A stretch of DNA of 64,000 bases from the IMG/VR virus record IMGVR_UViG_3300027759_000054; one strand, given 5' to 3'. Below are positions 5,294 to 58,386 of the stretch, one piece after another (the first letter of the stretch is position 1; the number at the start of each line of letters is the position of its first letter). The notes below the pieces were generated by a model. That model was not told where the DNA came from. It saw only the letters and a list, made by a program, of their open reading frames with translations, and did no database searches. This stretch comes from an uncultured virus (IMG/VR IMGVR_UViG_3300027759_000054). Its lineage: Duplodnaviria; Heunggongvirae; Uroviricota; Caudoviricetes. Position numbers and translations under genes: made by a program.

Positions 5294-7309
5294 ATGAACC
5301 CTCTAAAGGTCAAGGCAACAGGTTCCCCAATCACTTCTGCAAACATCAGCGGTTTGCAGACCATGACCGACGCAGAGGTAAAAAATTATATTGCCAATGT
5401 TATCACAGAAAAGTTTGCTTCAGTAACAGATGGTACTGGTACTGCTGAAATTAACATTACTACAAATAACTCAGGTGCAGGAACTTCGATCGGCACGTTC
5501 GTCGATACAACAAGAACCGAATCTATCGGAACGCATCCTGCTACTGGTGCAGTCTCTACAACAACATACACTGCTAAACAGGTTACTGCTGCTGCAGTGG
5601 AAAGTATCACCAACAGACCATTAGCATGGGATTCTCGCTTAGAAGAAATGGTAGATGGTGACATTGATAGCACAATGGATCTCTGTGTTGCGGCGATGGT
5701 CGCAGAATCAACATATACTGCTGGACAATATAAACTCCAAGCAACTGCGCCATCAGGCGGAACTTGGGTTTCGCGGTATACATTAACAGATACAGCGCAA
5801 GGTGGAAACACTGTAACATATCTGTGGCAGAAAACAGTTTCATCTTCGGCGCCAACAGTGGATCTCACACCACTAAAATTGTTTGCTGGTAGTAACTGCA
5901 AGCAGATGACTGAAGCAGAAATCGAACAGATGCTTCCAGTCTTTAGAAATAGAATTATTGAAACAGGTATCGGGACATATAAAATACAATCAGATGCGCC
6001 TAGTGGAGGCACTTGGGTTCAAACAGGTAACACATTCACGGATACTCGCGAAGAAGTAACACCACAGAACTACGCTGGTAATTACAGTAGTAATTATACT
6101 GGTAATTATACTGGCAATTATACTGGTCCTTTTCCATATTCTGCACCCTATTCCGCATCGGGAAATTATAGCAGTAATTTTACTGGACCTGCTTATAGTT
6201 CGCCATATACTGGTAATTATACTGGCAATTATACTGGATCCTTTTCCTCCCCTTTAGCATATACTGGAACAACCTATACAGGGTCCAGCAATTATACTAG
6301 ATCCTTTTCCTCCCCTTTAGCATATACTGGATTAACTTATACAGGTCCAGCAAATCCAGGAGCAAATTATACTGGTAATTACATAGGTGGTCCATTTTAT
6401 TCTACACCTGCTGGTCCATCATATTCGAATCCAGCAGGTCCATCATACTCGAATCCAGCAGGTAATAATCCAGGAGGTCCATCATATTCAACACCATATA
6501 CTGGCAGTTATGGAGGGAATTTCGATGGTCCTCGGCCCCAAAGACAAGAGGCAGTATACTATACTGGTGGTACCTTTAGTGCAAACTATACTGGGTTTTA
6601 TACAGGTCCAGGTCTCAACTATACTGGATACTTTGAGATACCTATCTATCCAAATGAACCTGGAGAAGTTTACATAGGAGAGTTTTCGGCACCACAAAAT
6701 TATGCTGGATTCTATGCATCAAATTTAGGTTATGCAGGAAATTTCCAAGGCCCTTCCCTGTATTTTGTTACTGGTTATGACAAACAATATTATACTGGAT
6801 TCTATGCGGGACCACCATCATATTCTACACCTGCAGGATCAAACCCAGCAGGTCCATCATATTCGAATCCAGCAGGTCCATCATACTCGAATCCAGCAGG
6901 TCCATCATATGGTCAGCCGTATGCAGGAACTTATACTGGACCTACAGGTCCAGGAACTTCATATACTGGATTCTATACTGGTCCAGGACCAGCGTACTCA
7001 GGGTTTTTCAGCGGTCCAGGAACTTCATATACTGGATTCTATACTGGTCCAGGACCAGCATACTCAGGGTTTTTCAGCGGAACTCCATATACTGGATTCT
7101 ATACTGGAACAGCGTACACTGGAACCTATACAGGGTATTTCACTGGCGTAGGAATAGCATATACTGGTTTTTACACTGGAACAACAAATTACACTGGAAA
7201 TTACTCAGGAAGTTATATAAATAATTTTACTGGATCATTTTCTGGGGCAACAATACAAGCAACTAAAGAAACAGTGTCATCTGTTAAGTTATGGATAAGG
7301 ACAGCATAA
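5294..7309 (+). CDS. Fibre-like virion protein A with Y/F-x-G-x repeat region
   Basis: About 260-aa N-domain and C-terminal ATKETVSSVKLWIRTA shared with 7313..9052; central Gly/Tyr/Thr/Pro repeats. Confidence 0.7.
   Translation: MNPLKVKATGSPITSANISGLQTMTDAEVKNYIANVITEKFASVTDGTGTAEINITTNNSGAGTSIGTFVDTTRTESIGTHPATGAVSTTTYTAKQVTAAAVESITNRPLAWDSRLEEMVDGDIDSTMDLCVAAMVAESTYTAGQYKLQATAPSGGTWVSRYTLTDTAQGGNTVTYLWQKTVSSSAPTVDLTPLKLFAGSNCKQMTEAEIEQMLPVFRNRIIETGIGTYKIQSDAPSGGTWVQTGNTFTDTREEVTPQNYAGNYSSNYTGNYTGNYTGPFPYSAPYSASGNYSSNFTGPAYSSPYTGNYTGNYTGSFSSPLAYTGTTYTGSSNYTRSFSSPLAYTGLTYTGPANPGANYTGNYIGGPFYSTPAGPSYSNPAGPSYSNPAGNNPGGPSYSTPYTGSYGGNFDGPRPQRQEAVYYTGGTFSANYTGFYTGPGLNYTGYFEIPIYPNEPGEVYIGEFSAPQNYAGFYASNLGYAGNFQGPSLYFVTGYDKQYYTGFYAGPPSYSTPAGSNPAGPSYSNPAGPSYSNPAGPSYGQPYAGTYTGPTGPGTSYTGFYTGPGPAYSGFFSGPGTSYTGFYTGPGPAYSGFFSGTPYTGFYTGTAYTGTYTGYFTGVGIAYTGFYTGTTNYTGNYSGSYINNFTGSFSGATIQATKETVSSVKLWIRTA
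6237..7078 (+). repeat. Coding direct repeats in fibre protein A
   Basis: 63-nt period at 6237/6300; identical 51-nt copies at 6413-6463 and 6851-6901; 66-nt tandem at 6947/7013. Confidence 0.9.
7216..7223 (+). promoter_or_regulatory. Possible internal late promoter for fibre protein B
   Basis: TATAAATA about 90 nt upstream of the 7313 ATG. Confidence 0.45.
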
Positions 7310-7312
7310 AAC

Positions 7313-9052
7313 ATGGTTTTAAGAAATAAATCTTCGGCGACCCCTGTTTCTGCTGTAAACTGGCAGGGTCTACAACAGATGTCAGTTGATGAAGTAAAGA
7401 ATTACATTGCACAAACTCTGACAGTTTCTTTCGGCGCAAACTCAGATGGTACTGGCACTGCTGAAATCAACATCACAACAAACAACAGTGGTTCTGGTAC
7501 TTCAATCGGAACATTTGCTGACACAGATCGCCAAGAAGCAACAGGAACTCACCCAGCAACTGGTGCGGTTGACACTGTCACATACACTGCAAAACAGGTT
7601 ACTGCTGCTGCGGCGGAAAGTATTACCAATCGTCCTTTGAAATATGATGCTGGTATTAAAGAACTGACAGATGCTCAAATTGATAGTGAAATCCTAGATT
7701 ATGCTATTAATGCGATGGTCTCTGAAACAACTTATACTGCTGGGCAATATAAATTACAACCAACTGCTCCGTCGGGTGGTACTTGGGTTTCACGTTATAC
7801 TCTAACAGATGTTGCTAATGGCGGTAATACTACTACATATCTGTGGCAGAAAACTGCTGCAACTACTCTTTCAGACTCCAATCTTAAACCATTAAAACTT
7901 ATTGATACCAAAGATGTCAAAGAAATGTCGTCTTCGGAAATCCTACAGATGCTTCCGAATTTTAGAAACAGAATTATTGAGACAGGAATCGGCACATATA
8001 AGGTCCAATCAACTGCTCCAGTTTCTGGTGGAACATGGGTTCAACTCGGTGATGAGTTTGCTGACACCAGAGAGCAAGTAACACCACAGAACTATCAAGG
8101 TAACTTCGTCGGCAACTATCTCGGCACCTTCTCAGGTTCAAGAAATTATTCTGCAGCATATGCTGGTACATATACTGGAGCATTCGCAAACAACTTTAGT
8201 GGCGGTTATGTTGGTCCAGCAAACTATTCCGCAGCATATTCTGGAGCATTCGCAAACAACTTTAGTGGCGGTTATGTTGGACCAAAAAACTATACTGGAT
8301 CTTACTCACAGGGGTTCAGTGGAAACTATGTCGGTAACTATGTAGGACCAAAAAACTATACTGGATCTTACTCACAGGGGTTCAGTGGAAACTATGTCGG
8401 TAACTATGCTGGTTCTAGAAACTATGCAGGTAACTATGCTGGAAACTATCTCGGAACATATTCGCGAAACTTCACAGGAACTTACTCGCAAGGTTTCTCT
8501 GGTAACTATCTCGGAACATATGCACGATTCTTTGGCGGATTCCTTAATGGAAATTTCCAGGGTAACTATCTTGGAACTTATACGGGCAACTTCTCGGGTA
8601 ACTATCTAGGTAACTTCTCCGGCAACTATCTCGGCACCTATGCTGGTTCTAGAAACTATGCAGGAAATTATGCGGGAACATATCTCGGAACATACACAGG
8701 ATTCTTCACAGGAAACTATCTCGGAACTTCAACATATACTGGAACATATTCGGGTAATTATACTGGATTCTTCTCGGGTAACTATCTAGGAACTGCAACA
8801 TATACTGGCAATTATACTGGTTCCTTCACAGGGTTTTATACTGGATTCTATGCAGGAACTGCTACCTATACGGGCACATACACTGGAAACTTCACAGGAA
8901 ACTACACTGGATTCTATTCAGGTTCTAGAAACTATACAGGTAATTATGCCAGCAACTTTAGTGGAACGTATTCAAGCAACTTCTCTGGCGCAACAGTAAT
9001 TGCGACCAAAGAAACTGTATCGACGATAAAACTTTGGGTTCGCACCGTATAA
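7313..9052 (+). CDS. Fibre-like virion protein B, paralog of A
   Basis: Shared N-domain (DGTGTAEINITTNNSG, GTHPATGAV, YLWQKT) and C-terminal strand; GNY/GTY/GFY tetrapeptide repeats. Confidence 0.7.
   Translation: MVLRNKSSATPVSAVNWQGLQQMSVDEVKNYIAQTLTVSFGANSDGTGTAEINITTNNSGSGTSIGTFADTDRQEATGTHPATGAVDTVTYTAKQVTAAAAESITNRPLKYDAGIKELTDAQIDSEILDYAINAMVSETTYTAGQYKLQPTAPSGGTWVSRYTLTDVANGGNTTTYLWQKTAATTLSDSNLKPLKLIDTKDVKEMSSSEILQMLPNFRNRIIETGIGTYKVQSTAPVSGGTWVQLGDEFADTREQVTPQNYQGNFVGNYLGTFSGSRNYSAAYAGTYTGAFANNFSGGYVGPANYSAAYSGAFANNFSGGYVGPKNYTGSYSQGFSGNYVGNYVGPKNYTGSYSQGFSGNYVGNYAGSRNYAGNYAGNYLGTYSRNFTGTYSQGFSGNYLGTYARFFGGFLNGNFQGNYLGTYTGNFSGNYLGNFSGNYLGTYAGSRNYAGNYAGTYLGTYTGFFTGNYLGTSTYTGTYSGNYTGFFSGNYLGTATYTGNYTGSFTGFYTGFYAGTATYTGTYTGNFTGNYTGFYSGSRNYTGNYASNFSGTYSSNFSGATVIATKETVSTIKLWVRTV
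8135..8940 (+). repeat. 66-nt (22-aa) periodic coding repeats in fibre protein B
   Basis: Near-identical units at 8175/8241 and 8279/8345; GSRNY markers at 8135, 8411, 8645, 8921. Confidence 0.9.
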
Positions 9053-10272: not shown

Positions 10273-10950
10273 ATGCTACAATTTACAAATTCAGTTTCTA
10301 AAGAACTAAGTGACATTCTAGATCCATTCACAGAATGGTTCTTTGCTCAAAATGATCAACATCTCGTGCTGGGTCCACAAGAGCACCAAGAAAAGCGTAA
10401 AGGTGGATTGAATGTGGACACTGCCACCGACGAACAATATTTAAATCATATTGTCGGTAAGGGTGATAAGCATGTTGGATTTCCTGATGTTGCATGGTGT
10501 ACCGATATGTCTCAGGCACATGGACAAACATGGTTTCCAACCGAATATGGTAGAAGACAGCAAGCAACGAATTCTGAGATAATGAGTTATCTTGGTGCAA
10601 GAAACAATGCGGTGTTTACATATTATCCCGAAAATGGTTTCATGGGTTGGCATACCAATTGGAATGCATCAGGATATAATATTCTGATTACTTACAATAC
10701 AGAAGAAAATGGTGGATACTTCCGCTACCTGGATCCAGTTACGAAGGAAATCGTAACTATGGTTGATCCTATTGGTTGGTCATGCAAGGTTGGTCATTTC
10801 GGCGATCGTAGCGATCCGAATAAAATTGTCTATCATTGCTGTGGTAATACTGCGAAGAGATTGACACTAGGATATGTTGTACCGCATCTAGAAATCTGGC
10901 GGTCAATGATTGAAGATATCTCAGGTGAAGACGCTTCTCACTTTTCCTGA
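10273..10950 (+). CDS. 2OG-Fe(II) oxygenase-like protein
   Basis: YYPENGFMGWHTN, distal YHCC and RLTLGY; resembles a DSBH pattern with an atypical HxN. Confidence 0.55.
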   Translation: MLQFTNSVSKELSDILDPFTEWFFAQNDQHLVLGPQEHQEKRKGGLNVDTATDEQYLNHIVGKGDKHVGFPDVAWCTDMSQAHGQTWFPTEYGRRQQATNSEIMSYLGARNNAVFTYYPENGFMGWHTNWNASGYNILITYNTEENGGYFRYLDPVTKEIVTMVDPIGWSCKVGHFGDRSDPNKIVYHCCGNTAKRLTLGYVVPHLEIWRSMIEDISGEDASHFS

Positions 10951-11675
10951 GTGCTCTTAACCTCACTATATTTTGTGAGCAGATCTTCTAGAATAGTCAA
11001 CTGCTCATGCATTTTTTCAATATCATCTAGTAACTTAGGAACTGCAATTCTTGCTCGCTCGAGGATTGCAGTTTCATAGTTTTTAATTCCAACATTAGTA
11101 GCAGACTTAATTCGACGGTTTCGAAATAATGTTTTAATTTTACTAATCAACGATGGTTGTTTTGGTGTCATGTTTAGTTGAACCATTTGTTGATTACTGC
11201 GCTGTTCAGTTGCCTGTTGTCGTGCTTTTAAAATTTGTTCTTCTTTTATTTTTGCCGCTGCAGCATTTTCTCTAGCAAGTTTTTCATTTTCCTCTTTGAG
11301 GATTTGTAATTCTTCAACTAGTTTCGGATCTGTAACATGAACAGTTTCTATAACTGTTTCGATTACCTTCTCTATTACAACAGGCGGATTTTCTAAAATC
11401 TCTTTTGCTTTAGCAATTGTTTCTGCTGCTACTTTCGATTCTTCTTCTATTGCAAGTTTTTGTCTCTGCAATTCTTCATGTTTTTCTTGTGCGATTCTTT
11501 CTCTATCAAGTTCTTCTTGAGAAGGTTCATTAATCTCAACTTCGATAATTTCTTCTTGAAAGTTTCCATCGACCCACTCTTCCACGACCACTTCCTCGGG
11601 TGGAGGTGGTGCTGATACTAAAGGTTCCGGAATATAATCTTGCGGTGGTGGTGCGACGACTCTTGCTCTTGCCAT
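10938..11675 (-). CDS. Hypothetical Pro/Glu-rich coiled-coil protein
   Basis: 245-aa ORF, last gene of the minus-strand operon. Confidence 0.7.
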   Translation of the reverse strand: MARARVVAPPPQDYIPEPLVSAPPPPEEVVVEEWVDGNFQEEIIEVEINEPSQEELDRERIAQEKHEELQRQKLAIEEESKVAAETIAKAKEILENPPVVIEKVIETVIETVHVTDPKLVEELQILKEENEKLARENAAAAKIKEEQILKARQQATEQRSNQQMVQLNMTPKQPSLISKIKTLFRNRRIKSATNVGIKNYETAILERARIAVPKLLDDIEKMHEQLTILEDLLTKYSEVKSTQEK

Positions 11676-11676
11676 A

Positions 11677-12276
11677 TTATGTCCCCAATTCTATCATGCA
11701 CGTATTGAGATATAATCTGGAGAATTTTAATTTTCTCTCATAGCAGAAATCTCTGACTGCTGCTCTAACTCCAGGATGTAAACTATTATGTATTGAATAA
11801 TCATCAACAAAAATTAATCCATTTTGTTTTACCACATCAAGACTAGATACCAAATCTTCCATCACACCCTCATAACTATGATCACCATCGATATAAATCC
11901 AGTCCAATTTTTCTCCAGTATACGAAGAAAACCAATCCCGAGAAGTCATTCGATGGATAGTTGCAGGTAAATCTTTAAATTGTTCACAAACGTCAAGATA
12001 GAGATCGTCATAAAATTTTTGAAAATCTGCTGGGTCTGTCGAACCTACTAATGAAGAATATCTCTCTAATATTTTTTCGTACCCCATATTCAACCAATCA
12101 GTAGTATTTTCATATACGCTGATATTATATGGATCTATCATATGTAGATAACTACATTTTGTCAAAAGTTGTTTTGACGCATCACCTCTCCAGATACCAA
12201 TTTCTGCACCTACAGAATTTTCTGGAATCCAATTCTCAGTTATTTTTTTAATATCCGTGTTTGTCCCAAGCATCAT
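11677..12276 (-). CDS. Class I SAM-dependent methyltransferase (Methyltransf_24-like)
   Basis: GAEIGIWRG motif I; IYIDGDHSYEGV; GLIFVDDY. Confidence 0.85.
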   Translation of the reverse strand: MMLGTNTDIKKITENWIPENSVGAEIGIWRGDASKQLLTKCSYLHMIDPYNISVYENTTDWLNMGYEKILERYSSLVGSTDPADFQKFYDDLYLDVCEQFKDLPATIHRMTSRDWFSSYTGEKLDWIYIDGDHSYEGVMEDLVSSLDVVKQNGLIFVDDYSIHNSLHPGVRAAVRDFCYERKLKFSRLYLNTCMIELGT

Positions 12277-12933
12277 TTACTTTTTTCCAATTACCATGAA
12301 GCGATCAAAGTTTACTTTGCCATCCCAAGACCAGTAAGACTGTTCGATCTGTCCCTCGTAGAAAACATCAGTAACTCCAACATTCTCAACATGCTCTTCG
12401 ATCGATGGAACACAATTAATACCCCACATCTCTCTAAAAACATTTGACGACTGACAGGCAAAGATACAATCCTTGTTTGCGGTCGTCATTTTATTTAGCG
12501 GATACATTGCCTCGCAACCAATAGAAACTACCACATCAGTTTCTAGTGCATTGATGTCATGATATGCGAATGGAACATCCCAGTTGATATGATTTAATTC
12601 AATACCCTTCTCAGAATAATACCGATTGAACACCATTGATAATTCCAATGCGTCTTTATCAATATCGATCAAGTTAATTTTCTTGACATTTAAATTTTCA
12701 CACAGTAATGGAACAAGTGGAAATCCTAACCAAGAATTTAGAATTGTAATGTCTAATTCTTCTGGAACATCTTTCATCTCCAATAGTTTTTCGACTAACC
12801 AAATGGCAGCATCCATAGTATTCGGATTCATGGACTTGCGGAAGTCCTCGTGTTTCCATGGCATCTCGTTGGCAATCTTATCAAGTCCCTCGCCCCAATA
12901 GCGATAGTTGTTCAAGTAATTATAATTTAACAT
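12277..12933 (-). CDS. Methyltransferase-fold protein (degenerate motif I)
   Basis: ITILNSWLG..INLIDID..DVVVSIGCE..FACQS..RFMVIGKK; start set at MLNYNY. Confidence 0.55.
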   Translation of the reverse strand: MLNYNYLNNYRYWGEGLDKIANEMPWKHEDFRKSMNPNTMDAAIWLVEKLLEMKDVPEELDITILNSWLGFPLVPLLCENLNVKKINLIDIDKDALELSMVFNRYYSEKGIELNHINWDVPFAYHDINALETDVVVSIGCEAMYPLNKMTTANKDCIFACQSSNVFREMWGINCVPSIEEHVENVGVTDVFYEGQIEQSYWSWDGKVNFDRFMVIGKK

Positions 12934-13603
12934 CTTGTGGTCTTTCCATTGAATCGTATAAACAAACGAGCGGTTCAGGTCTGAGAACATGTTCTCTTAC
13001 ATCAATCGGCCAAACATATCCATAGTTATAACTATACACCCAGTTATCTGGAAAGTGTCCGATTTTCAAAAGACGTTCTCTTTGGTGACCGAATAGATTA
13101 TCTAACCCACGATAATAAAAAAACATTTGGTCAGGATAATCTCTTACGAATTTAGTAATTTTGTTTACATCTAATTTATCGTTCCATCTAAGAACGCTTG
13201 AATTTAGATCCGTGTATCTAAACGGAATTTCTTTTGTATCCTCTTTCATTTGCTTCATGTTATGCCAACGAGTTCGAATGAAAGTTAATGTATCTTCTGG
13301 ATTATATTCAACAATACAATCAATATTGTGTTGAATACCTATGTCTAAGTCTAGGAAAAGTTTTTCTCCCATCTGCCGCACGACATTTTTGTCAAACAAG
13401 TAAAGTTTATTCCACCATTTCTCATAGTAATTATCTTCAGGAATGGGAATAACTATGACCTCTGGATCTAAATCTCCAGGGTGTTCTGTAATACAATAAA
13501 ATTTAAATTCGTGAGTTATGTGCTCTCTACACATTTGCAGAATACGATTTACGTATTCTGGTCCATATTTGAACCCCCACTTCACTGTGTAAATATTAAT
13601 CAT
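12920..13603 (-). CDS. Glycosyltransferase-like protein (KWG.KY family) 4
   Basis: VKWGFKY, WWNKLYLF, FLDLD, NSSVLRW; TGATG overlap with the upstream gene. Confidence 0.75.
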   Translation of the reverse strand: MINIYTVKWGFKYGPEYVNRILQMCREHITHEFKFYCITEHPGDLDPEVIVIPIPEDNYYEKWWNKLYLFDKNVVRQMGEKLFLDLDIGIQHNIDCIVEYNPEDTLTFIRTRWHNMKQMKEDTKEIPFRYTDLNSSVLRWNDKLDVNKITKFVRDYPDQMFFYYRGLDNLFGHQRERLLKIGHFPDNWVYSYNYGYVWPIDVREHVLRPEPLVCLYDSMERPQDVKL

Positions 13604-14427
13604 CAAATATTCCAATGCTCTAAAAGATCAGGATCGACTAGTGATTCCTGCTTCACTTTGCCTCTACGATCATCTTGGAACGGCAGTAAATCCACATTAA
13701 ACACGCAGAGAATGCAGTCTTTTCTATATATACCCACGTCAAGATCTCCCGAATCCCAGTCGCGTCCTCGGTTATATGAGTAAGCAAACGTATTTGGAAA
13801 ATGTTTCCATAGAGGAGTATTGCTAAAGTCGCCCCATCGCCAACTGTGGTAGTTGTCGGTTCCATCTGTAAACGTAAACCAAATACGCTCTTGGTTTTCG
13901 AGAACGTCCTGCCAGATACACTCCGTCTGATCATCTGACCATACCATGCAACTACCATTGGTATATGCACCATGAGAGAGTTTGAAGTTGCGCGATTTCA
14001 TCGGTCGTGGATCTTGCCACCATGACCGTAACTTGGTAGGATTCTCTAAGTCATAAGTGATGATTGGCGACAAATCATTTTGTATGATAACATCAAGGTC
14101 GAAGAATACAAATCTTCCAGTGGGGTTATCTTCTGCGAAGTTGTGTGTATTGAAGATAAACGTTTTCGGTCTGTCCCAACAACGTGCCATGCCGTATTTG
14201 AAATCCTCAGATCCAAACCAGTATTTCGGATGGATGTCGGGAATGTCTGGGAAGTCTATTACTTTAATCTCGGCGTCGAATCCTTCGCTGTTATCCGTAT
14301 AGCAATAGAAGTGAAACTCAAAATTATCTGAAGTATGTTTCTTTGCCATTCGATAAAGACGATTGACAAACTCAGCAGAATACTTTGTCCCCCATTTACA
14401 GCAAACGTAATTAACTCTCATTGCCAC
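13603..14427 (-). CDS. Glycosyltransferase-like protein (KWG.KY family) 3
   Basis: CCKWGTKY, FFDLDVII, NGSCMVW. Confidence 0.75.
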   Translation of the reverse strand: MAMRVNYVCCKWGTKYSAEFVNRLYRMAKKHTSDNFEFHFYCYTDNSEGFDAEIKVIDFPDIPDIHPKYWFGSEDFKYGMARCWDRPKTFIFNTHNFAEDNPTGRFVFFDLDVIIQNDLSPIITYDLENPTKLRSWWQDPRPMKSRNFKLSHGAYTNGSCMVWSDDQTECIWQDVLENQERIWFTFTDGTDNYHSWRWGDFSNTPLWKHFPNTFAYSYNRGRDWDSGDLDVGIYRKDCILCVFNVDLLPFQDDRRGKVKQESLVDPDLLEHWNI

Positions 14428-15179
14428 AACCTAATAATATTTTCATCAGTGCATTCCATTAATTTAATTTGTGCCTTTGCACTCGGATGCGGAACATTGT
14501 CTGTGTTGAACAAACATACCTTAGCATCTTTGCGAAACTTAAACCATTCCACATCATCTGGGTGATGCTTTCCACGATTCCACGAATAGATCCATCCTCC
14601 AGGAATATCCTTCCAAAAATCTCTCTGTCTCCAGTAATGGTAATTGTCACTCCCTTTAAAAAACGTTTTGAAAACGGAGTCAGAATTTTGCATGACATCT
14701 TTGTAGATATGTTCACAAGAAACATTAGGCCATAACATCATGCTCGAATTATAGAAAGTGCCTCGAGTATCTATGAACAATCTATCATGTTTCTGCGATT
14801 GTGGTTGCCAACGACATTGAATTATTCTTGGTTTTTCGGATAATTCAATTACCTCTGTTATATCTTCTTGGATTACCACGTCAAGGTCAAAGTAACACCA
14901 GTTTCCAGTATAACCAAGCCAATTATGTGAATTAAATACCAAGAACTTTGCACGGTCAAAACAGAAGGTTTCTTCGCCAAACCAATATTTGGGATGCAAA
15001 ATACCATCGTCTGGTATAGGTGCAGTATCACATTCAATTCCCTCGGCGTTATCTGTAAAACACGTGAATGTATAGGAAGATGGGTTCCGAGAAAAATTCT
15101 TTCGCACCATCTTATATAAGTTGTTTACATACTTGGCAGAGTACTTGTCGCCCCACTTAATGCATACGAAGTTCATCAT
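14418..15179 (-). CDS. Glycosyltransferase-like protein (KWG.KY family) 2
   Basis: CIKWGDKY, YFDLDVVI, NSSMMLW. Confidence 0.75.
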   Translation of the reverse strand: MMNFVCIKWGDKYSAKYVNNLYKMVRKNFSRNPSSYTFTCFTDNAEGIECDTAPIPDDGILHPKYWFGEETFCFDRAKFLVFNSHNWLGYTGNWCYFDLDVVIQEDITEVIELSEKPRIIQCRWQPQSQKHDRLFIDTRGTFYNSSMMLWPNVSCEHIYKDVMQNSDSVFKTFFKGSDNYHYWRQRDFWKDIPGGWIYSWNRGKHHPDDVEWFKFRKDAKVCLFNTDNVPHPSAKAQIKLMECTDENIIRLWQ

Positions 15180-15834
15180 ATTCTTTATCTGCTCCAGGAA
15201 ACTGGTCTAAACCATTTAGTAATGCTATGGTATATTCTGGTCTATACCAGAAAGATTCGTTGTGGTCATCAATTCCATAATAATCTGCTCCATAAACAAA
15301 AGAATAAATTTCACCCTTTGGAAAGTAATTGAATCTAAAATCTTCATGCCAAAGAAATCTATCATCACCAAAGTATTTGACCATGAAGTAATCAGGATCT
15401 GATTGGAAGTGTTCCCAAATATGTTGAACAGTTCCTTCCCTCCACATAACAACACTCGAGTTATAATTACTTAAGAAACGCATACCATGAGTTTCACCAA
15501 CATAGTCTGGAAATTCTTTATTCTTCCAATAAGTATATACTATTGTAGGAAAATTGTCAATAGAATTCCACAAATGATCAATGTTTTTTTGGATCCTTGT
15601 GTCAAGATCCAAGTAAAGAACATCACCCAATCCCCCCAAAGTATACATCCATATTTTAATCCAATGTCCTTCTATGTCTTCAGGCATAGGAATTGCCGTG
15701 ATCAATGGATCTAGACCCGTTGGATCGTCGGTGATACAAGCATAGTTATATTTTCTGTCAGTATCATTTACTATTCTGTTTACATCTGCAGCAGAATATT
15801 TTTCACCATATTTTATCATCAAAATCGTTTGCAT
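15157..15834 (-). CDS. Glycosyltransferase-like protein (KWG.KY family) 1
   Basis: IKYGEKY, YLDLD, NSSVVMW, GDDRFL; start set at MQTILM. Confidence 0.75.
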   Translation of the reverse strand: MQTILMIKYGEKYSAADVNRIVNDTDRKYNYACITDDPTGLDPLITAIPMPEDIEGHWIKIWMYTLGGLGDVLYLDLDTRIQKNIDHLWNSIDNFPTIVYTYWKNKEFPDYVGETHGMRFLSNYNSSVVMWREGTVQHIWEHFQSDPDYFMVKYFGDDRFLWHEDFRFNYFPKGEIYSFVYGADYYGIDDHNESFWYRPEYTIALLNGLDQFPGADKEYDELRMH

Positions 15835-15849
15835 AGTATTCTCAGTTGT

Positions 15850-15874
15850 TATAAATATTCCCGTATAATTTATA
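15850..15874. promoter_or_regulatory. Pair of oppositely oriented late promoters
   Basis: TATAAATA on + (15850-15857) and near-consensus TATAAATT on - (15867-15874) in the 50-nt gap between divergent operons. Confidence 0.55.
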
Positions 15875-15884
15875 AGGGTTTCCG

Positions 15885-16214
15885 ATGGCACAAATTCAAA
15901 ATATTTATATTGACCAAGGAACAACTTTTTCTTTGTCTCTTACAGTAAATGATCAGAATGGAGACATAAAAGATCTTACAGGTTATACTGTAGCGGCACA
16001 AATGCGCAGATCGTATTACACTACTACTTCTACTAGTTTTACTGCAGCAGTTTCTTTGCCCGAAGATGGTGAAGTCACTATTTCATTGACTGCGGTGCAA
16101 ACCTCAGCAATAAAAGCAGGAAGGTATGTTTACGATATTGAAATTACAGGCGATGGTGAAACGCTACGAGTTCTTGAAGGGATCGTTGTAATTAATCCAG
16201 AGGTAACGAAATAA
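15885..16214 (+). CDS. Virion structural protein (BppU N-terminal-like Ig fold)
   Basis: IDQGTTF..DLTGYT..AQMR..GRYVYDIEI..RVLEG motif. Confidence 0.7.
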   Translation: MAQIQNIYIDQGTTFSLSLTVNDQNGDIKDLTGYTVAAQMRRSYYTTTSTSFTAAVSLPEDGEVTISLTAVQTSAIKAGRYVYDIEITGDGETLRVLEGIVVINPEVTK

Positions 16215-28931: not shown

Positions 28932-29174
28932 ATGGAAAACAATGTAGCAGATCTAATAAATAACATTGAAAGCGGTACTCTTGCCGACGCAGAACAAGTA
29001 TTTAATGATTTAATGGACATTAAAGCAGGTAATGCGTTAGATGCATATAGACAGCAAATCGCAATGAATGTTTTTAACGGTCAAGAAGAATCAGAACCTG
29101 AAGAAGAATCTGATACTGACATTGAGGATGAATCAGAAGAAGACTTTACGGGAGAAGACGATGCTGAAGTTTAA
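28932..29174 (+). CDS. Acidic prohead core protein (gp67-like)
   Basis: Position after the portal gene; highly acidic C-terminus. Confidence 0.6.
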   Translation: MENNVADLINNIESGTLADAEQVFNDLMDIKAGNALDAYRQQIAMNVFNGQEESEPEEESDTDIEDESEEDFTGEDDAEV

Positions 29175-29436
29175 GGATTTAATGGAAAGAATCAATGAAA
29201 CTCGCTCATTGAATCTAGAAGAAGGTCGTATGAAAGATCTGGCAATGGACATGGAATCATTGTCTCATGCAGATTTTAAAAGAAAACATAGAAGAACAAA
29301 GCAAGAAATGCAAAGTTCTTTAAAATCTGAAGCACTAAAGGGCGATCAACATAAGATTGACGCGAATAAGAATGGTAAGGTTGACGGTCACGATTTCAAG
29401 ATTTTGCGTAATGCAAAGAAAGCTAGATACCAGTAA
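29161..29436 (+). CDS. Small prohead core/internal protein
   Basis: N-terminal MLKFKDLME resembles a capsid-targeting sequence; LEE site; DANKNGKVDGHDF EF-hand-like loop. Confidence 0.65.
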   Translation: MLKFKDLMERINETRSLNLEEGRMKDLAMDMESLSHADFKRKHRRTKQEMQSSLKSEALKGDQHKIDANKNGKVDGHDFKILRNAKKARYQ

Positions 29437-29446
29437 GGAATAACAG

Positions 29447-29824
29447 ATGGCGACTAAAGCGGTTCTAAAACTAACACAGGTTCATGGTGTGGTGAAAGTG
29501 CGTGGCACGGGATCCGCTACCATTGCACTTGCAACTGATCTGAAGAAGTCTTCAGAAACTCAGTCTTCACCAAAGGCAAACATTCGCACACTCCATTGGG
29601 CACTGGCAGTAGCCACCACTGCTACTGTTACTCGGAATAGCGTAGTTCTATACTATCTATCAGGGTCAGGCAAAATGGAATTCATGGGTTGGTCGGACAA
29701 TGAAGAAAACGGATCAGATATTGTTGTAGATTTTTCATCAGGCACTGGATCTGTAGTTCTAGAACTCGCTAAGATTTCTGGATATGGTTCGCAACAACAT
29801 CAGAACCAAGGAGATCTAGGATAA
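29447..29824 (+). CDS. Head-region hypothetical protein
   Basis: AGGA RBS; directly upstream of gp21. Confidence 0.7.
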   Translation: MATKAVLKLTQVHGVVKVRGTGSATIALATDLKKSSETQSSPKANIRTLHWALAVATTATVTRNSVVLYYLSGSGKMEFMGWSDNEENGSDIVVDFSSGTGSVVLELAKISGYGSQQHQNQGDLG

Positions 29825-30492
29825 TGAAACTTATTACTGAAGTCGTTGAAGACGTAAACCTTTTAATCGAAGAAACCAATGGCAAGAAAACACACTTCAT
29901 CGAGGGTGTGTTTCTGCAATCTAATTTGGCAAACCGCAATGGTCGTGTTTATCCAAAAGAGATTATGTCGAAAGAAGTCGAAAGATATAATGAAAGTTAT
30001 GTCAGATCGAATCGTGCTCTCGGAGAACTCGGTCACCCAGATGGTCCATCGATCAATCTAGATCGTGTTTCACACATGATTGTCTCACTCAAAGAAGACG
30101 GTGACAATTATATTGGTAAAGCAAAACTCATGGATACTCCAATGGGCAATATTGCTAAAGGTCTTATCGAGGGTGGCGCTAAACTTGGTGTTTCTTCCCG
30201 TGGTATGGGTACATTGAAAGCAAATAAAGAAGGCATTAATGAAGTCCAAGACGACTTCTACCTTGCTACTGCTGCTGACATTGTGGCAGATCCTTCTGCT
30301 CCTGACGCATTCGTTCAGGGCATTATGGAAAATAAAGAATGGGTTGTGGTTAATGGTGTCTGGACAGAGCAAGCATGTGACATGTCTAAGAAGTTGATCA
30401 AGAAAGCATCCAGAAAAGAATTGGAAGAAGCGAAGTTGAGAGTATTTGAATCTTTCTTAAATCGTGTCTCCCGTAAAACAAAAGTTTTATAA
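29824..30492 (+). CDS. gp21: Prohead protease gp21
   Basis: NRNGRVY; ALGELGHP; GVSSRGMG; DIVADPSAPDA. Confidence 0.97.
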   Translation: MKLITEVVEDVNLLIEETNGKKTHFIEGVFLQSNLANRNGRVYPKEIMSKEVERYNESYVRSNRALGELGHPDGPSINLDRVSHMIVSLKEDGDNYIGKAKLMDTPMGNIAKGLIEGGAKLGVSSRGMGTLKANKEGINEVQDDFYLATAADIVADPSAPDAFVQGIMENKEWVVVNGVWTEQACDMSKKLIKKASRKELEEAKLRVFESFLNRVSRKTKVL

Positions 30493-30525: not shown

Positions 30526-31872
30526 ATGAACGTAGAAAACAAAATCAGAGAGTTGCTTAATAAAAAGCAATTATCCGAGGAAAATGCTGGTCCGATGGGC
30601 GCAGTAAAGGGTAAGGATACTTCGATCCCAGCAAAAACTGCAGGCGATGCAACGAATCCACGTCAGGGATCGTCGGAAGACGCAACTATTGCAAGCGAAC
30701 GTGATCAGGAAACTGATAATCCAGGCGCCAAAGAAGCGTCACCAATTGCTGACAACAAGAGCAAGATTTCACAATCAGGCGCAGGTGCTGCTCCAAACTT
30801 TACCACTGTTGCTGATCCAACATCGGTTGTAAACCAAGCATCTTCAAGAGGCAATGTTCATCAAGAAGAGTATGACCCAGAAGAAGACGACGAAGAAGAA
30901 GTCGAAGAACTCGACGAAATCTCGCAAAGTCTAGCATCAAGAGCTGTTGTTAAGAGAGGCGACAAGGTTTACGGCGATGCGATCGAACGTGGCGATGTTG
31001 CAGATCCAAAACAAGAAAAGAAATTTACCTCAGGACTCAACAGAGTCAAGAAAAAGTTCGGTGACGCAGCTGCGAATAAAGTGGAGCGCAAAGTGGACAA
31101 AGCAATTGGTTTAGATAGACACTACAAAGAAGAAGTCGAACTAGAAGAAGAAGCAGATTTCGCTGCTGATCTAGCAACTCTGTTTGACGGTAATCAAGAT
31201 CTTTCAGAAGAATTCCGTGACAAGGCATCATCGCTTTTCGAAGCAATGGTTGTGGCACGTGTAAGCAATGAAGTTTCAATCATTGAAGATACACTCGTTG
31301 CAGAAGCTGCTGAGTTGATGGAAGAATATAAGTCGGAACTCGTAGAGAAGGTTGATTCCTATCTCGGTTACGTAGTCGAAAATTGGATCGAAGAAAATCA
31401 ATTGGCAGTAGAAAACGGTCTCCGTACTGACATTGCTGAAGATTTCATCGAAGGTCTAAAAACACTTTTCGCTGAGCATTATGTTGATGTCCCAGAAGAC
31501 AAATACGATGTTCTAGGTGAAATGCAATCACAGATTGAAGAAATTTCTTCGAAACTGGATGAAGCAATCGCTGCTAATGTAGAACTACACGATGCTAATC
31601 TTCACCTCAACAAGGAAAGTGTTCTTTCTGTAGTTGCTGAAGGTCTTGCAAAAACAGACGCTGAGAAATTCAAGTCGTTGGTCGCTGATGTAGAATTCGA
31701 GAATGCAGATATCTTTGAAGAGAAGTTGAATGTCATCAAGGAAAATTATTTCCCCAAGACAAGAACTCTTTCTGAAGAGAAATTTGACGATGGAGTTGAC
31801 AATGACTTCAGCGAAGGATCAACCGTAAGTCAGTATATCAAGGCACTTGATGTACTTGCTTCTAAAAATTAA
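30526..31872 (+). CDS. gp22: Prohead scaffold gp22 with a basic insertion
   Basis: LSEEFRDKA..FEA; VDSYL.YVVENW..EN; F.EHYVDVPEDK; IKENYF. Confidence 0.92.
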   Translation: MNVENKIRELLNKKQLSEENAGPMGAVKGKDTSIPAKTAGDATNPRQGSSEDATIASERDQETDNPGAKEASPIADNKSKISQSGAGAAPNFTTVADPTSVVNQASSRGNVHQEEYDPEEDDEEEVEELDEISQSLASRAVVKRGDKVYGDAIERGDVADPKQEKKFTSGLNRVKKKFGDAAANKVERKVDKAIGLDRHYKEEVELEEEADFAADLATLFDGNQDLSEEFRDKASSLFEAMVVARVSNEVSIIEDTLVAEAAELMEEYKSELVEKVDSYLGYVVENWIEENQLAVENGLRTDIAEDFIEGLKTLFAEHYVDVPEDKYDVLGEMQSQIEEISSKLDEAIAANVELHDANLHLNKESVLSVVAEGLAKTDAEKFKSLVADVEFENADIFEEKLNVIKENYFPKTRTLSEEKFDDGVDNDFSEGSTVSQYIKALDVLASKN

Positions 31873-31916: not shown

Positions 31917-33203
31917 ATGTTTCTTTCAGAGCAACTAACAAAAAAGTGGGAACCAGTTCTCAATCATGACGGACTTGGCCAGATCACAGATAAATACAAG
32001 CGTGCGGTTACTGCAGTAGTTCTTGAAAACCAAGAGCGTGCACTTCGCGAAGAGCGCACTGCTCTTTTCGAAACTCCAGCAAACAACATCGCTGGTACTG
32101 GTGCTTCCGACATCGATCGCTACGATCCAATCCTAATCTCGCTCGTTCGTCGTGCGCTGCCTAACTTGATGGCATATGACGTTGCTGGCGTGCAACCTAT
32201 GACTGGTCCAACTGGTCTTATCTTCGCAATGAAGTCAGCTTACACTACCCAAGCGGGTACGGAAGCACTCTTCAACGAAGCAGATACAGACTTCTCTGGT
32301 ACAGGAACTCATGCTGGTTCAAACCCAGTTGATGGCGCTTACACCACAGGTACTGGTGTTGCAACAGTAGACGCTGAGCAACTTGGCGAATCTGGTGGAA
32401 CTGACTTCAACCAAATGGCATTCTCGATCGAGAAAACAACTGTAACTGCTAAGACACGTGCTCTCAAAGCAGAATACACTGTCGAACTCGCTCAAGATCT
32501 CAAGGCAATTCACGGTCTTGACGCTGAAGGCGAACTTTCCAACATCCTTTCACAAGAAATTCTTGCTGAAATCAACCGCGAAGTTATCCGTACGATCTAC
32601 AAAGTTGCTAAGACAGGTGCCGCTTCGACTGCAACTGCTGGTACTTTCGATCTTGACGTTGACTCAAACGGTCGTTGGTCAGTTGAGCGTTTCAAGGGTC
32701 TTCTGTTCAACATCGAACGTGACGCTAACGTAATCGCTCAAGACACTCGTCGTGGTAAGGGTAACTTCATTATCTGTTCGTCAGATGTTGCTGCTGCTCT
32801 CGCAATGGCAGGTATGCTTGATACAGGTGCTGCACTTGCTGGTTCGCCAACTCTTCAGGTTGATGACACAGGCAATACCTTCGTTGGTACGCTGAACGGT
32901 CGTTACAAAGTATTCGTAGATCCTTACTCAGCAAACACTGGCGCTGCATCGCAGTTCTATGTTGTTGGTTATAAGGGTGCCAATGCTTATGACGCTGGTA
33001 TCTTCTATTGCCCATACGTTCCACTACAAATGGTTCGTGCAATCGATCCTAATACCTTCCAACCAAAAATTGGTTTCAAGACTCGTTACGGGATGATCGC
33101 TAACCCATTCGTAACCCAGTCGAACGGTACAACTGACGGTGATACTTTCACTTCTAACCGTAACCAATACTATCGTCGTGTTAAGGTTACTAACCTTATG
33201 TAA
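31917..33203 (+). CDS. gp23: Major capsid protein gp23
   Basis: GVQPMTGPTGLIFAM; ELAQDLKAIHGLDAE; FQPKIGFKTRYG. Confidence 0.99.
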   Translation: MFLSEQLTKKWEPVLNHDGLGQITDKYKRAVTAVVLENQERALREERTALFETPANNIAGTGASDIDRYDPILISLVRRALPNLMAYDVAGVQPMTGPTGLIFAMKSAYTTQAGTEALFNEADTDFSGTGTHAGSNPVDGAYTTGTGVATVDAEQLGESGGTDFNQMAFSIEKTTVTAKTRALKAEYTVELAQDLKAIHGLDAEGELSNILSQEILAEINREVIRTIYKVAKTGAASTATAGTFDLDVDSNGRWSVERFKGLLFNIERDANVIAQDTRRGKGNFIICSSDVAAALAMAGMLDTGAALAGSPTLQVDDTGNTFVGTLNGRYKVFVDPYSANTGAASQFYVVGYKGANAYDAGIFYCPYVPLQMVRAIDPNTFQPKIGFKTRYGMIANPFVTQSNGTTDGDTFTSNRNQYYRRVKVTNLM

Positions 33204-33894: not shown

Positions 33895-34239
33895 ATGATT
33901 AAAGATCGTATACAGTTTACAGATTCTGCTCTTGAGCATTTTCGTAATGTCTCTGTCTCCAATAATGCACTTGGTGTGCGTCTGTCCCTTGCAGGTGGTG
34001 GGTGTGCTGGATTTAGTTACAAGTGGGATCTTGTAAAAAATTCTGACGAACTTGTTGAAGATGATTTCCCACAGGAGTATAATGATTGGACCTTCTGGTT
34101 AGATAGACCATCGGAACTCTATCTTATTGGTAGTACAGTAAACAAAAAAGTGGACATCATTGGTAGCGTCATCGAGATACAAGCACCTCTTGCATCAAGC
34201 AGTTGTGGTTGTGGGGAAAGTATCAATTTTAATCTTTAA
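33895..34239 (+). CDS. A-type Fe-S cluster carrier (HesB/IscA/SufA family)
   Basis: GGGCAGFSY and CGCGES motifs. Confidence 0.92.
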   Translation: MIKDRIQFTDSALEHFRNVSVSNNALGVRLSLAGGGCAGFSYKWDLVKNSDELVEDDFPQEYNDWTFWLDRPSELYLIGSTVNKKVDIIGSVIEIQAPLASSSCGCGESINFNL

Positions 34240-41002: not shown

Positions 41003-41354
41003 TTTTGGATTCACATTTGAAGATCCAACCGAAACCGTGGTTCACGTTCGAGAACCATATAATCCCCAAGAAGATGTAGATACCAGCGGTCTCAAAGATG
41101 AGATCATGGCAAAACTCTATGACATCGAGTCTCGTATTTTGACAGCAGACCAGTCAACAATGATCTCTGAACATAAACGACTCGTCGAAATGGAAGTCAC
41201 AGAGAAACTGAAACAAGTCGAAGATCTAATTCTTCCCCTACTTTACAACCTGATGAAGAATCCTGAGAAGGAGTATATTCATTGGCCAAACAGGATACCA
41301 ATTATTGATGCACAAATTGACAAAATCACCGCGATCACGCGACACTATGAATGA
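40983..41354 (+). CDS. Hypothetical protein
   Basis: DFGFTF..ILPLL.NL.KNP.KEYIHWPNR. Confidence 0.7.
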   Translation: MSNKTYDFGFTFEDPTETVVHVREPYNPQEDVDTSGLKDEIMAKLYDIESRILTADQSTMISEHKRLVEMEVTEKLKQVEDLILPLLYNLMKNPEKEYIHWPNRIPIIDAQIDKITAITRHYE

Positions 41355-41967
41355 TCCTGATCTGCCCTATTTTCCCAGAGCAAAATATTTTCAGCAACCA
41401 GTAGCAACTGCTATAACATTTTATCTCTGTGGTGAAATCAAACCAGCAGAAGATTATGTTGAATGGTTTCAGATTCTGCGAGCAGCAGGTGAGACTGATA
41501 TAATTTACATTCGTATTAACAGTGAAGGTGGTGACTTGTTCTCTGCTTTGCAACTGGTTCGTGCGATTCAGGAATCAAATGCCACCATCGTATGTTCGGT
41601 TGAAGGCATTTGTATGAGCGCTGCTACTTTGATATTCTTGTCGGCAGATAGATTCGAACTATCTGACCATACCATGTTTATGTTCCACAACTACTCAAGC
41701 GGAACAATCGGCAAGGGTGGTGAGATGTATGACCAAATCACTCACTTCAGGTCTTGGTCAGAAAAACTGTTTGATTATTTCTACAAGGACTTTTTGACAT
41801 CTGATGAAATCAAGTCCATGCTTGATAACAAGGACATCTGGTTAGATGCAGATGAAGTCGGGAAACGATTAGCGAATCGTATTGCTGCTCAAGAACCAGA
41901 CGAGGAAATCGTTGTCGTGGAAACTCCAACTCCAAAACGCACAAGAAAAAAAGTATCAAAAGAATAA
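41347..41967 (+). CDS. ClpP-like protease
   Basis: INSEGG; CMSAAT (catalytic Ser); FMFH; DIWL. Confidence 0.88.
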   Translation: MNDPDLPYFPRAKYFQQPVATAITFYLCGEIKPAEDYVEWFQILRAAGETDIIYIRINSEGGDLFSALQLVRAIQESNATIVCSVEGICMSAATLIFLSADRFELSDHTMFMFHNYSSGTIGKGGEMYDQITHFRSWSEKLFDYFYKDFLTSDEIKSMLDNKDIWLDADEVGKRLANRIAAQEPDEEIVVVETPTPKRTRKKVSKE

Positions 41968-42008: not shown

Positions 42009-42620
42009 ATGATTGGTTTTAAAGATTATATATTCGAACGTAAAGAGGGTTCTGGTCTAACCATTTGGGATATAGACGAGACCCTCTTCAACACAAAGGC
42101 ACTCATCTATGTGATGAAAGGCGGAGAAGTCTCCCGTAAGTTATCCAATCAAGAGTTTAACACCTACAAGTTGGGTGCTGGTGAGTCCTTTGACTTCCGC
42201 GAGTTTCGCGATGCTAAACATTTCCGAGACACTTCTGAACCTATCGCAAAAGCAATCAATAAACTAATCGCCATTCATAAGAATGTAAAGGCAAAGGGTA
42301 GCAAGATGATTGTTATCACTGCTCGTGCTGACTTTGACGATCGTGACATGTTTCTAGATACTTTCCGTAAGCAGGGTATCGACATTGATGACATCCATGT
42401 GCATCGCGCTGGTAATCTAAATGCACCAAACTCTGCTGCTGGGAAAAAGATTTTCATTAAACAGTATCTCGACACAGGTAAGTATGCTCGTGTTCGTTTG
42501 TTTGATGATGCGACCTCAAATCTTGACATGTTGATTGGTTTAAAAACCGAATATCCAGATGTTGACTTTGAGGCGTATCTTGCGCATCATGATGGATCTA
42601 TGACAAGATACCGTAAATAA
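42009..42620 (+). CDS. HAD-superfamily phosphatase with capsid-targeting-like N-terminus
   Basis: WDIDETL motif I; ITAR motif II; K; FDD motif IV; N-terminal MIGFKDYIFE. Confidence 0.8.
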   Translation: MIGFKDYIFERKEGSGLTIWDIDETLFNTKALIYVMKGGEVSRKLSNQEFNTYKLGAGESFDFREFRDAKHFRDTSEPIAKAINKLIAIHKNVKAKGSKMIVITARADFDDRDMFLDTFRKQGIDIDDIHVHRAGNLNAPNSAAGKKIFIKQYLDTGKYARVRLFDDATSNLDMLIGLKTEYPDVDFEAYLAHHDGSMTRYRK

Positions 42621-42624
42621 GGGC

Positions 42625-42653
42625 TTGACTTTTGTCAGGTTCTAGGGTAGAAT
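42625..42653 (+). promoter_or_regulatory. Early promoter
   Basis: GGGC-TTGACT-N17-TAGAAT. Confidence 0.8.
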
Positions 42654-42676
42654 GGAATAATAGAAGGAGAAAGTTT

Positions 42677-43024: not shown

Positions 43025-43049
43025 TTTAGTCTAAAAGTAATTTTAGGGC

Positions 43050-43078
43050 TTGACATTTCTACCAAAATAGGGTAGAAT
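43050..43078 (+). promoter_or_regulatory. Early promoter
   Basis: GGGC-TTGACA-N17-TAGAAT. Confidence 0.85.
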
Positions 43079-43105
43079 GAAATATATTAATTGATGAGGT
43101 CTGTG

Positions 43106-45374: not shown

Positions 45375-45426
45375 TACCCCGAAACGAAAATAAGGGCTTG
45401 ACTTTTATCTCGTTTCGGGGTAGAAT
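45375..45426 (+). promoter_or_regulatory. Early promoter inside a 13-bp inverted repeat
   Basis: TTGACT(45398)-N17-TAGAAT; arms 45375-45387 and 45410-45422. Confidence 0.8.
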
Positions 45427-45458
45427 GAAATATAATGATTGATAAGGAAAATTTTATT

Positions 45459-45656
45459 ATGGTTGATTTCCCCTCTGAACTTGAAACTCTCGTCCTCTGT
45501 GACTGGTCGCGTGATGAAAATGGTGTCCTTCGTGCTGTTTATCCTAACGGTGCTGGGTTTATTCTTCTTCGTGATGAAACCGTTGAATATTATGACTTCT
45601 GTAATGACGGTTCTTCTGAATTGGTTGAGTCGCGTGAATTGATTATTTCTAAATAA
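45459..45656 (+). CDS. Small hypothetical early protein
   Basis: AAGGA RBS; lies between two early promoters. Confidence 0.6.
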   Translation: MVDFPSELETLVLCDWSRDENGVLRAVYPNGAGFILLRDETVEYYDFCNDGSSELVESRELIISK

Positions 45657-45661
45657 AAGGC

Positions 45662-45690
45662 TTGACTTTTATTTCGTTTTATGGTATAAT
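45662..45690 (+). promoter_or_regulatory. Early promoter
   Basis: GGC-TTGACT-N17-TATAAT. Confidence 0.85.
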
Positions 45691-45724
45691 GTTTATATTG
45701 ATGATGTGATGTGAGGAATTTTTT

Positions 45725-50987: not shown

Positions 50988-51476
50988 ATGAAATTTGATA
51001 CAACAAGTTTACCGCACATCGATCGTTATTTTGTTGGCGCTGATCGCGTCATGAAAAGGTTGGCAGATATTGCTGATCAATCGACGCTGATGATGCCAAT
51101 TAAATATCCCCCATACAATATCAAGAAAGTCGATGAGAATCGCTACGTAATCGAACTGGCAGTTGCTGGTTTCGGTAAGTCGGAGATTGATATTGAATTG
51201 CAAGAAGGCAAGTTGTCCATCCAAGGAAAGTGTGACTCGCCTGAATCCACTGAATATCTCTATAAGGGAATTGCTGAACGAGGATTCAAACGTGAATTCA
51301 CTCTCGCAGATAACGTCGAAGTAAAGAGTTCTTCTCTGGTAAATGGTATGCTGAAGATCTTTCTCGAGGCATTTATTCCGGAAGAAAAGAAAGCAAAGAA
51401 AATCGACATCACTGATGAGGATAGTGAGTATCCATCGCAAGCTGCCGAATTCTTAGCAGAAGGTAAAACAAAGTAA
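50988..51476 (+). CDS. hsp20: Small heat shock protein Hsp20
   Basis: YPPYNI; IELAVAGF; YKGIAERGF.REF.L; NGML. Confidence 0.95.
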   Translation: MKFDTTSLPHIDRYFVGADRVMKRLADIADQSTLMMPIKYPPYNIKKVDENRYVIELAVAGFGKSEIDIELQEGKLSIQGKCDSPESTEYLYKGIAERGFKREFTLADNVEVKSSSLVNGMLKIFLEAFIPEEKKAKKIDITDEDSEYPSQAAEFLAEGKTK

Positions 51477-58252: not shown

Positions 58253-58277
58253 CAAAATTAAATAAGTATAGTATAGT
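58249..58277 (+). promoter_or_regulatory. Sigma70-like promoter of the tRNA
   Basis: TTGACA-N17-TATAGT. Confidence 0.75.
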
Positions 58278-58289
58278 TGAATAGTAATT

Positions 58290-58366: not shown

Positions 58367-58386
58367 TTTTAATAAGAGGATAGATT

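Follow-up and report, generated by a model that had tools for sequence, protein, structure and literature searches.

The acidic, low-complexity linker that precedes the conserved scaffold domain of gp22 acts as a slot for protein modules in the T4-like phages studied here. Most gp22 proteins have an empty slot; where it is filled, the modules belong to at least four unrelated families, and the module found in our sequence has been exchanged at least twice between gp22 and a small nearby gene, denoted the cassette gene in the following. That gp22 contains a mobile slot is close to certain. The scaffold-borne module is best read as cargo resembling the internal proteins (IPs) of T4, which would be cut free by the head protease and carried in the head; we assign this reading a probability of roughly 60%. 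Exchange and the refilling of the slot are well supported as genetics, and the biochemistry is inferred.

Head genes and occupancy of the gp22 slot

The window, i.e. the whole stretch of 64,000 nucleotides under analysis, is a fragment of a T4-like phage (40.6% GC) and is contained in 20 listed runs from 14 studies, labelled mostly as freshwater or lake. Its head genes are ordered as in T4, with the located ones on the plus strand: a gp67-like core protein (28932–29174, phrog_1064, E 9.6e-9), the cassette gene (29161–29436, 91 aa), a 125-aa gene, the prohead protease gp21 (29824–30492, Pfam Peptidase_S77, E 2.5e-37), which is the presumed releasing enzyme, the major scaffold gene gp22 (30526–31872) and the major capsid gene gp23 (31917–33203), named from synteny. 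In gp23 an L-F-E motif ends at residue 52 and marks the likely propeptide cut; of 75 loci, 70 have L-F-E or L-W-E at the corresponding position, under a search pattern that demanded [LIV]-x-E. The gp22 product of 448 aa (approximately 370–400 aa in insert-free relatives) is assigned to the scaffold class by a T4_CASP domain (PF25623, residues 213–419, E 1.8e-59, 201.7 bits compared to a curated cut-off of 27), a match to phrog_237 (E 3e-68) and the location between gp21 and gp23. Its best-scoring cultured relatives are from cyanophages and Methylophilales phages, with 42–51% identity in the C-terminal half only. A second modular gene, referred to as the polyprotein gene, occupies 62444–64000 on the plus strand; the 519 aa encoded in the window are 100% identical to the polyprotein of L098, which has 758 aa.

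Other parts of the window hold features of separate interest. Two paralogous genes at 5294–9052 carry long Gly/Asn/Tyr/Thr-rich repeats and gave no Pfam match. A minus-strand block of seven genes (10938–15924) lies amid structural genes; one of the seven is methyltransferase-like (PF13578), the others having no convincing Pfam match. Auxiliary genes in four intervals (33895–34239, 41305–41967, 50988–51476 and 57662–60156) encode an Fe–S assembly protein, a ClpP-like protease, an Hsp20, a 2OG-Fe(II) oxygenase and two family-2 glycosyltransferases.

The module, here denoted type A, spans 30910–31134 (plus strand, 75 codons that run from L-D-E through to K-E-E) and corresponds to gp22 residues 129–203. 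Fetching of related sequences provided 75 loci, 69 of which had a parsable full linker and, together with the window, make up a set of 70 full-length gp22 alleles. The block, regarded in the preliminary description as an optional, replaceable cassette and not as a segment conserved in all related gp22 proteins, is absent from 66 of them; the insert-bearing alleles are the window, L001 (the same DNA), L002 and L003. A protein search with gp22 matched 1179 clusters, and among the best 120 of these six are filled at the same acidic linker, by four unrelated module families. Four rows among the 120 escaped the linker pattern and are visibly empty. P0001, P0004 and P0007 contain the present module, their rank being favoured by a query that included the insert, and P0106, P0118 and P0175 contain other, unrelated modules. 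The P0106 insert is 86–90% identical to the module directly downstream of the present one in P0005 and P0006, both cassette-gene orthologs, and the P0118 insert is related to another cassette module (32–37%, E 8e-6). For P0175, which lacks an L/I-x-E motif on the left side, no match was found among the sequences collected in this analysis. The DNA of P0005–P0009, P0106, P0118 and P0175 was not found, and their junctions were read at the protein level only.

P0001, P0007 and P0106 are mutually nearest backbones with C-terminal parts 97.5–99.2% identical, and each of these three members of one gp22 sub-lineage is filled with a different module. Similarly, L002 and L003 are 99% identical in the flanks and 83% identical in the module. 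Near-identical backbones with differing modules indicate that module replacement is faster than backbone drift. The alignment of relatives reveals both presence/absence and replacement of the block, as had been expected, albeit not precisely at the 14-nt repeats that flank it in the window (see below). Contigs containing the insert were recovered from runs X1 (the possible source), X2, X3 and X5; X1 carries the identical allele, matching pieces of the insert occur in the three further runs, from three other studies, and X3 also has an ordinary empty allele. A second length polymorphism of gp22, approximately 18–22 additional residues near the N-terminus that are similar to a later part of the same protein, was observed in L028 and L030–L033.

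Module exchange between gp22 and the cassette gene

The cassette gene is hypervariable, its product ranging from 61 to 528 aa among relatives, and is built from basic modules joined by linkers of the form x-E-E-V-E-(E/G/Q)-(L/T)-D-E. Its conserved end shows a weak EF-hand/dockerin-like motif that recurs in other modular proteins. The gp22 module also turns up in three cassette-gene orthologs (P0005, P0006 and P0008) and in P0009, a modular protein of 839 aa. Two types of the module, A and B, are each found in gp22 and in the cassette gene. Across the two genes the type A copies are 95% identical and the type B copies 90–94% identical, compared to 73–75% between A and B within gp22. A tree in which the four gp22 copies were forced together was rejected in an AU test of grouping by host gene (p-AU 5.4e-9), run after the first tree had been seen and on a 12-row tree that is otherwise poorly resolved. 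The proposal that one module can travel from gene to gene within the head region, at linkers rich in Glu, is supported by this distribution.

A profile search with the insert, suggested earlier, was performed with a profile from eight sequences and returned 98 family representatives at E up to 0.001; the library was clustered at 50%, such that gp22 fusions could be hidden in it. The more distant members are fusions at the gp67 position and modular genes near a nucleotidyltransferase, as placed from 19 loci only; related modules fused to the gene at the gp67 position were seen in the more distant phages L079, L081–L087 and L089. Residues 198–327 of P0024 represent a family member fused to a RecA-like piece, possibly in a chimeric assembly. 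In close relatives, the two modular genes comprise about 41 module clusters, nearly all basic whatever the sequence; the modules measure 45–120 aa and gave no Pfam match.

The nearest relatives of the module were located mainly in orthologs of 29161–29436, and the module family was absent from the polyprotein of the window, in which the preliminary description had seen a similar module. The polyprotein is modular like the cassette gene, its modules vary at K-E-E linkers, and the two have one other module in common (82%). The likeness drawn between the insert and the polyprotein module at 63425–63607 holds for the start motif and for nothing beyond it: BLAST provided E 0.016, hhalign a probability of 2% over 20 columns, and the family HMM did not match this module in a search of 7372 ORFs. 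Homology past the start motif was rejected on these grounds. A DUF6267 gene and a cytidylyltransferase-like gene lie upstream of the polyprotein gene (60186–61912); in S-RIM2 the cytidyltransferase itself has 1021 aa with Glu-punctuated extensions. Virion preparations of S-CREM2 have been described to contain the cytidylyltransferase and the two next hypothetical proteins (ORF154–156), indirect evidence that carries a contamination caveat (PMC10665884).

One account of these data is that the modules are tolerated passengers, which slip by accident into a disordered part of gp22 via linker similarity, are cut out, and are then lost with the debris or kept without benefit, their real job being that in the cassette gene. 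The low occupancy fits this account, with four filled alleles out of 70 (two being the same DNA) and six of the best 120 clusters, as does the freely varying length of the linker, which measures 24–46 aa in empty alleles and carries a 21-nt duplication in one contig. A dN/dS of 0.70 between types A and B, compared to 0.11–0.12 among cassette alleles of a sister module, can also be placed here, as it fits both relaxed and diversifying selection. Still, accident would hardly fill all three members of one sub-lineage with three different modules, nor place both types in two backbones, nor account for an identical allele in X1 and pieces of the insert in three runs of three other studies. Moreover, L003 has a filled slot, and on its contig (L078, 3316–3887) no cassette gene separates gp67 from the 125-aa gene. 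A filled slot combined with a short or missing cassette gene was seen in the window and L003 only. On balance, we consider a tolerated passenger rather unlikely.

Predicted fold and proposed release of the module

The core of the module comprises 70 aa with a pI of 10.0 and a net charge of +8, and 86 of the 98 family members have a pI above 9. AlphaFold2, supplied with a 40-row alignment, models the module as a basic three-helix domain (helices 2–27, 33–50 and 52–65, mean pLDDT 85.8, pTM 0.68). Ala9, Arg16, Lys49 and Gly51 are conserved at 90% or more in the 40 sequences. No match to the module was found in Pfam or PHROGs, nor, at E up to 1, among PDB sequences or cultured phages; among the 97 family hosts, Pfam matches were restricted to a weak DUF7216 (two hosts), the RecA piece (one host) and two marginal cases. 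Structure comparison returned a best score of 0.82 in the ESM Atlas, a lead at most, nothing at E 0.001 with Foldseek in PDB and BFVD, and a best VIA-align Z of 7.4 (rmsd 2.5, 61 aligned), a generic helical match that does not make the fold new. Searches that might have linked the module to a known internal protein by sequence or fold returned generic helical matches, and no Pfam, PHROGs or PDB-sequence match.

In T4, gp21 cuts after L/I-x-E (PMC9026906). If this rule holds here, a fragment encoded by 30919–31149 (plus strand, residues 132–208, 77 aa, 8.6 kDa, pI 9.2) would be released. Under the rule gp22 has 17 sites, two of which end at residues 131 and 208 with none between, and the module therefore sits in a 77-residue site-free fragment that is exceeded in length by the 113-residue N-terminal fragment only. 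By motif, the predicted fragment resembles an internal protein, with L/I-x-E at the mature start and none inside. Across the 98 family members, no L/I-x-E occurs inside the module, compared to 24.2 expected from shuffles; counted by clusters, the values are 0 versus 8.4 (31 clusters) and 0 versus 4.1 (19 clusters under 50% identity). Non-head proteins contain 57 sites versus 42.7 expected, and the gp22 core 13 versus 5.3. L/I-x-D (13 versus 30.6) and L/I-x-x-E (10 versus 24) likewise fall short of expectation in the family, from which it follows that part of the signal reflects the placement of acidic residues. In the 41 other module clusters the depletion of L/I-x-E is not significant (3 versus 6.0, p 0.14). 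The start at L-D-E in 90 of the 98 members is partly circular, as this start was contained in the search profile.

Based on these features, the following sequence of events is proposed. The module would first have entered gp22 by recombination with the cassette gene between Glu-rich linkers that are similar at the DNA level, and later swaps and spread would have relied on ordinary homologous recombination in the gp22 flanks or module ends. Each scaffold molecule that enters the prohead core would bring the fused module with it; gp21 would then cut after L-D-E and L-E-E and shred the scaffold, sparing the folded, basic 8.6-kDa module. Excision of the intact module is considered likely. The module may then stay in the head like IPI* of T4, a product of 76 residues (PMC3012670), and we lean towards its retention in the mature head. 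It probably would enter the host together with the DNA; ejection followed by activity in the host is put forward tentatively. In T4, a prohead contains 576 copies of gp22; most gp22 and core peptides leave the head, which speaks against the cargo reading, and a 2.5-kDa gp22 fragment is kept at 115 copies (PMC9026906).

As to function, blocking of a host defence protein is the leading guess, with a structural polycation and the neutral passenger as alternatives. It is guided by T4, where Ip1–3 each inhibit a specific GmrSD (PMC12373910). The polycation alternative agrees with release and retention and has the module act only inside the head, on DNA charge or core size, the modules being interchangeable because only charge matters. 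The net charge of +8 in the 70-aa core and the basic nature of nearly all module clusters are in line with this, and T4 internal proteins have been described to bind DNA at low salt, with lysines touching phosphates (PMC9026906, PMC3012670). Conversely, charge alone would not call for the four conserved residues or a defined predicted fold, the shuffling of dozens of mutually unrelated modules is what target-specific factors would show, and all three T4 IPs are specific inhibitors; a purely structural role is deemed improbable. Returning to the cargo reading, the Glu-rich linker might serve at once as head-protease site and as recombination handle, with the scaffold providing a selectable high-copy position; a module transferred there from the cassette gene would reach a dose of hundreds per particle and could overwhelm host defence at entry. 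This last proposal is more speculative.

The 14-nt repeats and the history of recombination

The 14-nt direct repeats claimed to flank the insert are present at 30893–30906 and 31127–31140 (plus strand), with a spacing of 234 nt, i.e. the 78 codons reported, in frame within gp22. The 16-mer common to 31125 and the polyprotein linker at 62986 was likewise found, and the quoted peptide is correct. A third exact 14-mer lies at 62988–63001, and one-mismatch copies lie at 63216 and 21390; the third 14-mer and a one-mismatch copy flank another optional polyprotein module (62988–63229, plus strand), which is absent in L108 and located elsewhere in L125. Shuffles gave a mean of 0.07 matches to the 14-mer. 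Given the encoded peptides and the codon usage of the window, three identical 14-mers have a P of 0.001–0.005 and two a P of 0.03–0.05, and the identity hence exceeds chance, but modestly.

Judged by sequence, the 14-nt repeats are two copies of the linker of the modular genes. The left copy is inside a 27-nt stretch at the junction that is found unchanged in the first linker of the L080 cassette gene, and the 14-mer is present in several cassette genes, in L037 twice and around part of the gene. Among 39 distinct cassette linkers, 25 use the codon GTC for the linker valine, compared to 15 of 147 background valines before Glu, a bias that shared descent alone could explain as the linkers are not independent; it is weak in polyprotein linkers (5 of 15). 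Comparison of alleles of the two modular genes gave 23 clean indel rows, several of which represent the same event; without exception, they end in Glu linkers. Exactly shared bases number 6–13 in 11 of these rows, 2 or fewer in five and 4–5 in the rest. Linker-ended indels could reflect selection for whole modules and not directed recombination.

The perfect 14-mers did not hold up as an insertion site. None of the 66 empty alleles contains the word or has the form that exact excision would leave, and position 31135 in the right copy is polymorphic, which makes the repeat imperfect in L002 and L003 (one base off in both) and in the X3 and X5 contigs; a target-site duplication was rejected for the same reasons. 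In contigs of the four runs, which drop rare variants, neither a precise-excision joint nor a mini-circle joint was seen, and the only joint present has an ordinary 34-nt empty linker in place of 262 nt. A repeat-defined mobile element that inserts and excises exactly at the two 14-nt repeats is accordingly highly improbable, notwithstanding the three exact copies beyond chance and the paired copies in L037.

Spread between gp22 lineages involved, as read from the alignments, longer flanks than the 14-nt repeats. The window and L002 are identical over 225 of 225 nt of the insert and 88.6% and 75.7% identical in the flanks. Diagnostic sites define an L002/L003-type tract at 30848–31212 (plus strand), bordered by own-lineage sites up to 30816 and at 31227–31228, with a mixed patch downstream at 31272–31297; approximately 365–410 nt, gp22 flanks included, are common to the window and L002/L003. 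The right-hand patch also occurs in P0007 and P0106, which points to more than one exchange via the gp22 flanks.

The two AGCT sites highlighted in the insert (30942 and 31068) exist, and the tetramer is rare overall (15 observed versus 136 expected in the window), but as an argument they are weak, a third site being located at 31305 in the gp22 core. Two AGCT in a named 234-nt stretch have a P of 0.0015, and about 0.4 such stretches are expected by chance across 64 kb, for which reason AGCT was rejected as a stand-alone argument. The sites would fit if the sequence had passed through the L002/L003/L034 lineage, where RGCY words are hardly avoided (AGCT observed/expected 19/26, 23/28 and 17/23). 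The window avoids all four RGCY words (observed/expected: GGCT 8/88, AGCT 15/136, AGCC 9/49, GGCC 14/32), and CCGG and GTAC likewise. The contrast between the window and this sister lineage may point to distinct hosts or a distinct restriction pressure, even though genes are exchanged. Four sigma-70-like promoter repeats of similar sequence (42612–42659, 43037–43084, 45385–45432 and 45649–45696) each have GGCT preceding the -35 box, and account for four of only eight GGCT in the window. A cluster of four RGCY sites near 58300 was considered as a regulatory element and rejected, as 58290–58365 reads by eye as a tRNA gene.

Significance and comparison with known systems

In these phages, a head-assembly protein that is essential and conserved has a natural plug-in site, the content of which has turned over repeatedly between phages that are almost identical. 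Should the modules survive maturation, the slot would offer a tag-free route for loading ejected proteins, and, if the reading is true, candidate anti-defence proteins, small and unannotated, would be numerous (98 representatives in this family alone). Gene-level annotation of T4-like environmental phages is predicted to hide cargo, and proteome searches that do not allow for cleavage after Glu would miss the cargo peptides.

IPI, IPII, IPIII and Alt of T4 are the closest parallel. Like these proteins as described, the gp22 module is small and basic (in the form of the predicted fragment), non-essential and variable among close relatives; T4 IPs are released by gp21 after L/I-x-E, and IPI* is one residue shorter than the 77 predicted here (PMC9026906, PMC3012670, PMC12373910). 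They differ in being encoded by separate genes with a 10–19 residue N-terminal capsid targeting sequence, whereas the present module is internal to gp22, embedded in an essential scaffold, would have to be cut twice for release and also occurs in multi-module genes. T4 gp22 has the orthologous scaffold domain, and its retained 2.5-kDa fragment is a part of the scaffold (PMC9026906), in contrast to a folded module that may be present or absent and is traded between genes.

Shuffling of accessory genes at short repeats that act as recombination points is known from the PeSL cassettes of RB49 and phi1 and the repeats of the T-even ip locus (PMC2839356, and Repoila 1994 as cited therein). PeSLs are described as intergenic promoter/stem-loop elements of about 100 bp that flank whole genes (PMC2839356). 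The gp22 repeats, unlike these, are short in-frame coding linkers and presumed protease sites, with shuffling inside single proteins as well as from one protein to another.

Polyvalent proteins (Iyer et al. 2017) share the multi-domain chain, a proposed release by peptidase and delivery with the DNA (PMC5512222). In that system release is attributed to embedded peptidase domains, and the available text of this source makes no mention of a scaffold; the modules described here are short (45–120 aa), lack Pfam matches and are bounded by gp21-type sites. Module inserts in gp22 and, among the head genes of T4-like phages, polyproteins with protease linkers were not described in any paper returned by a search that covered the subscription literature thinly. 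What is new here is the scaffold slot together with the allele-level evidence of exchange.
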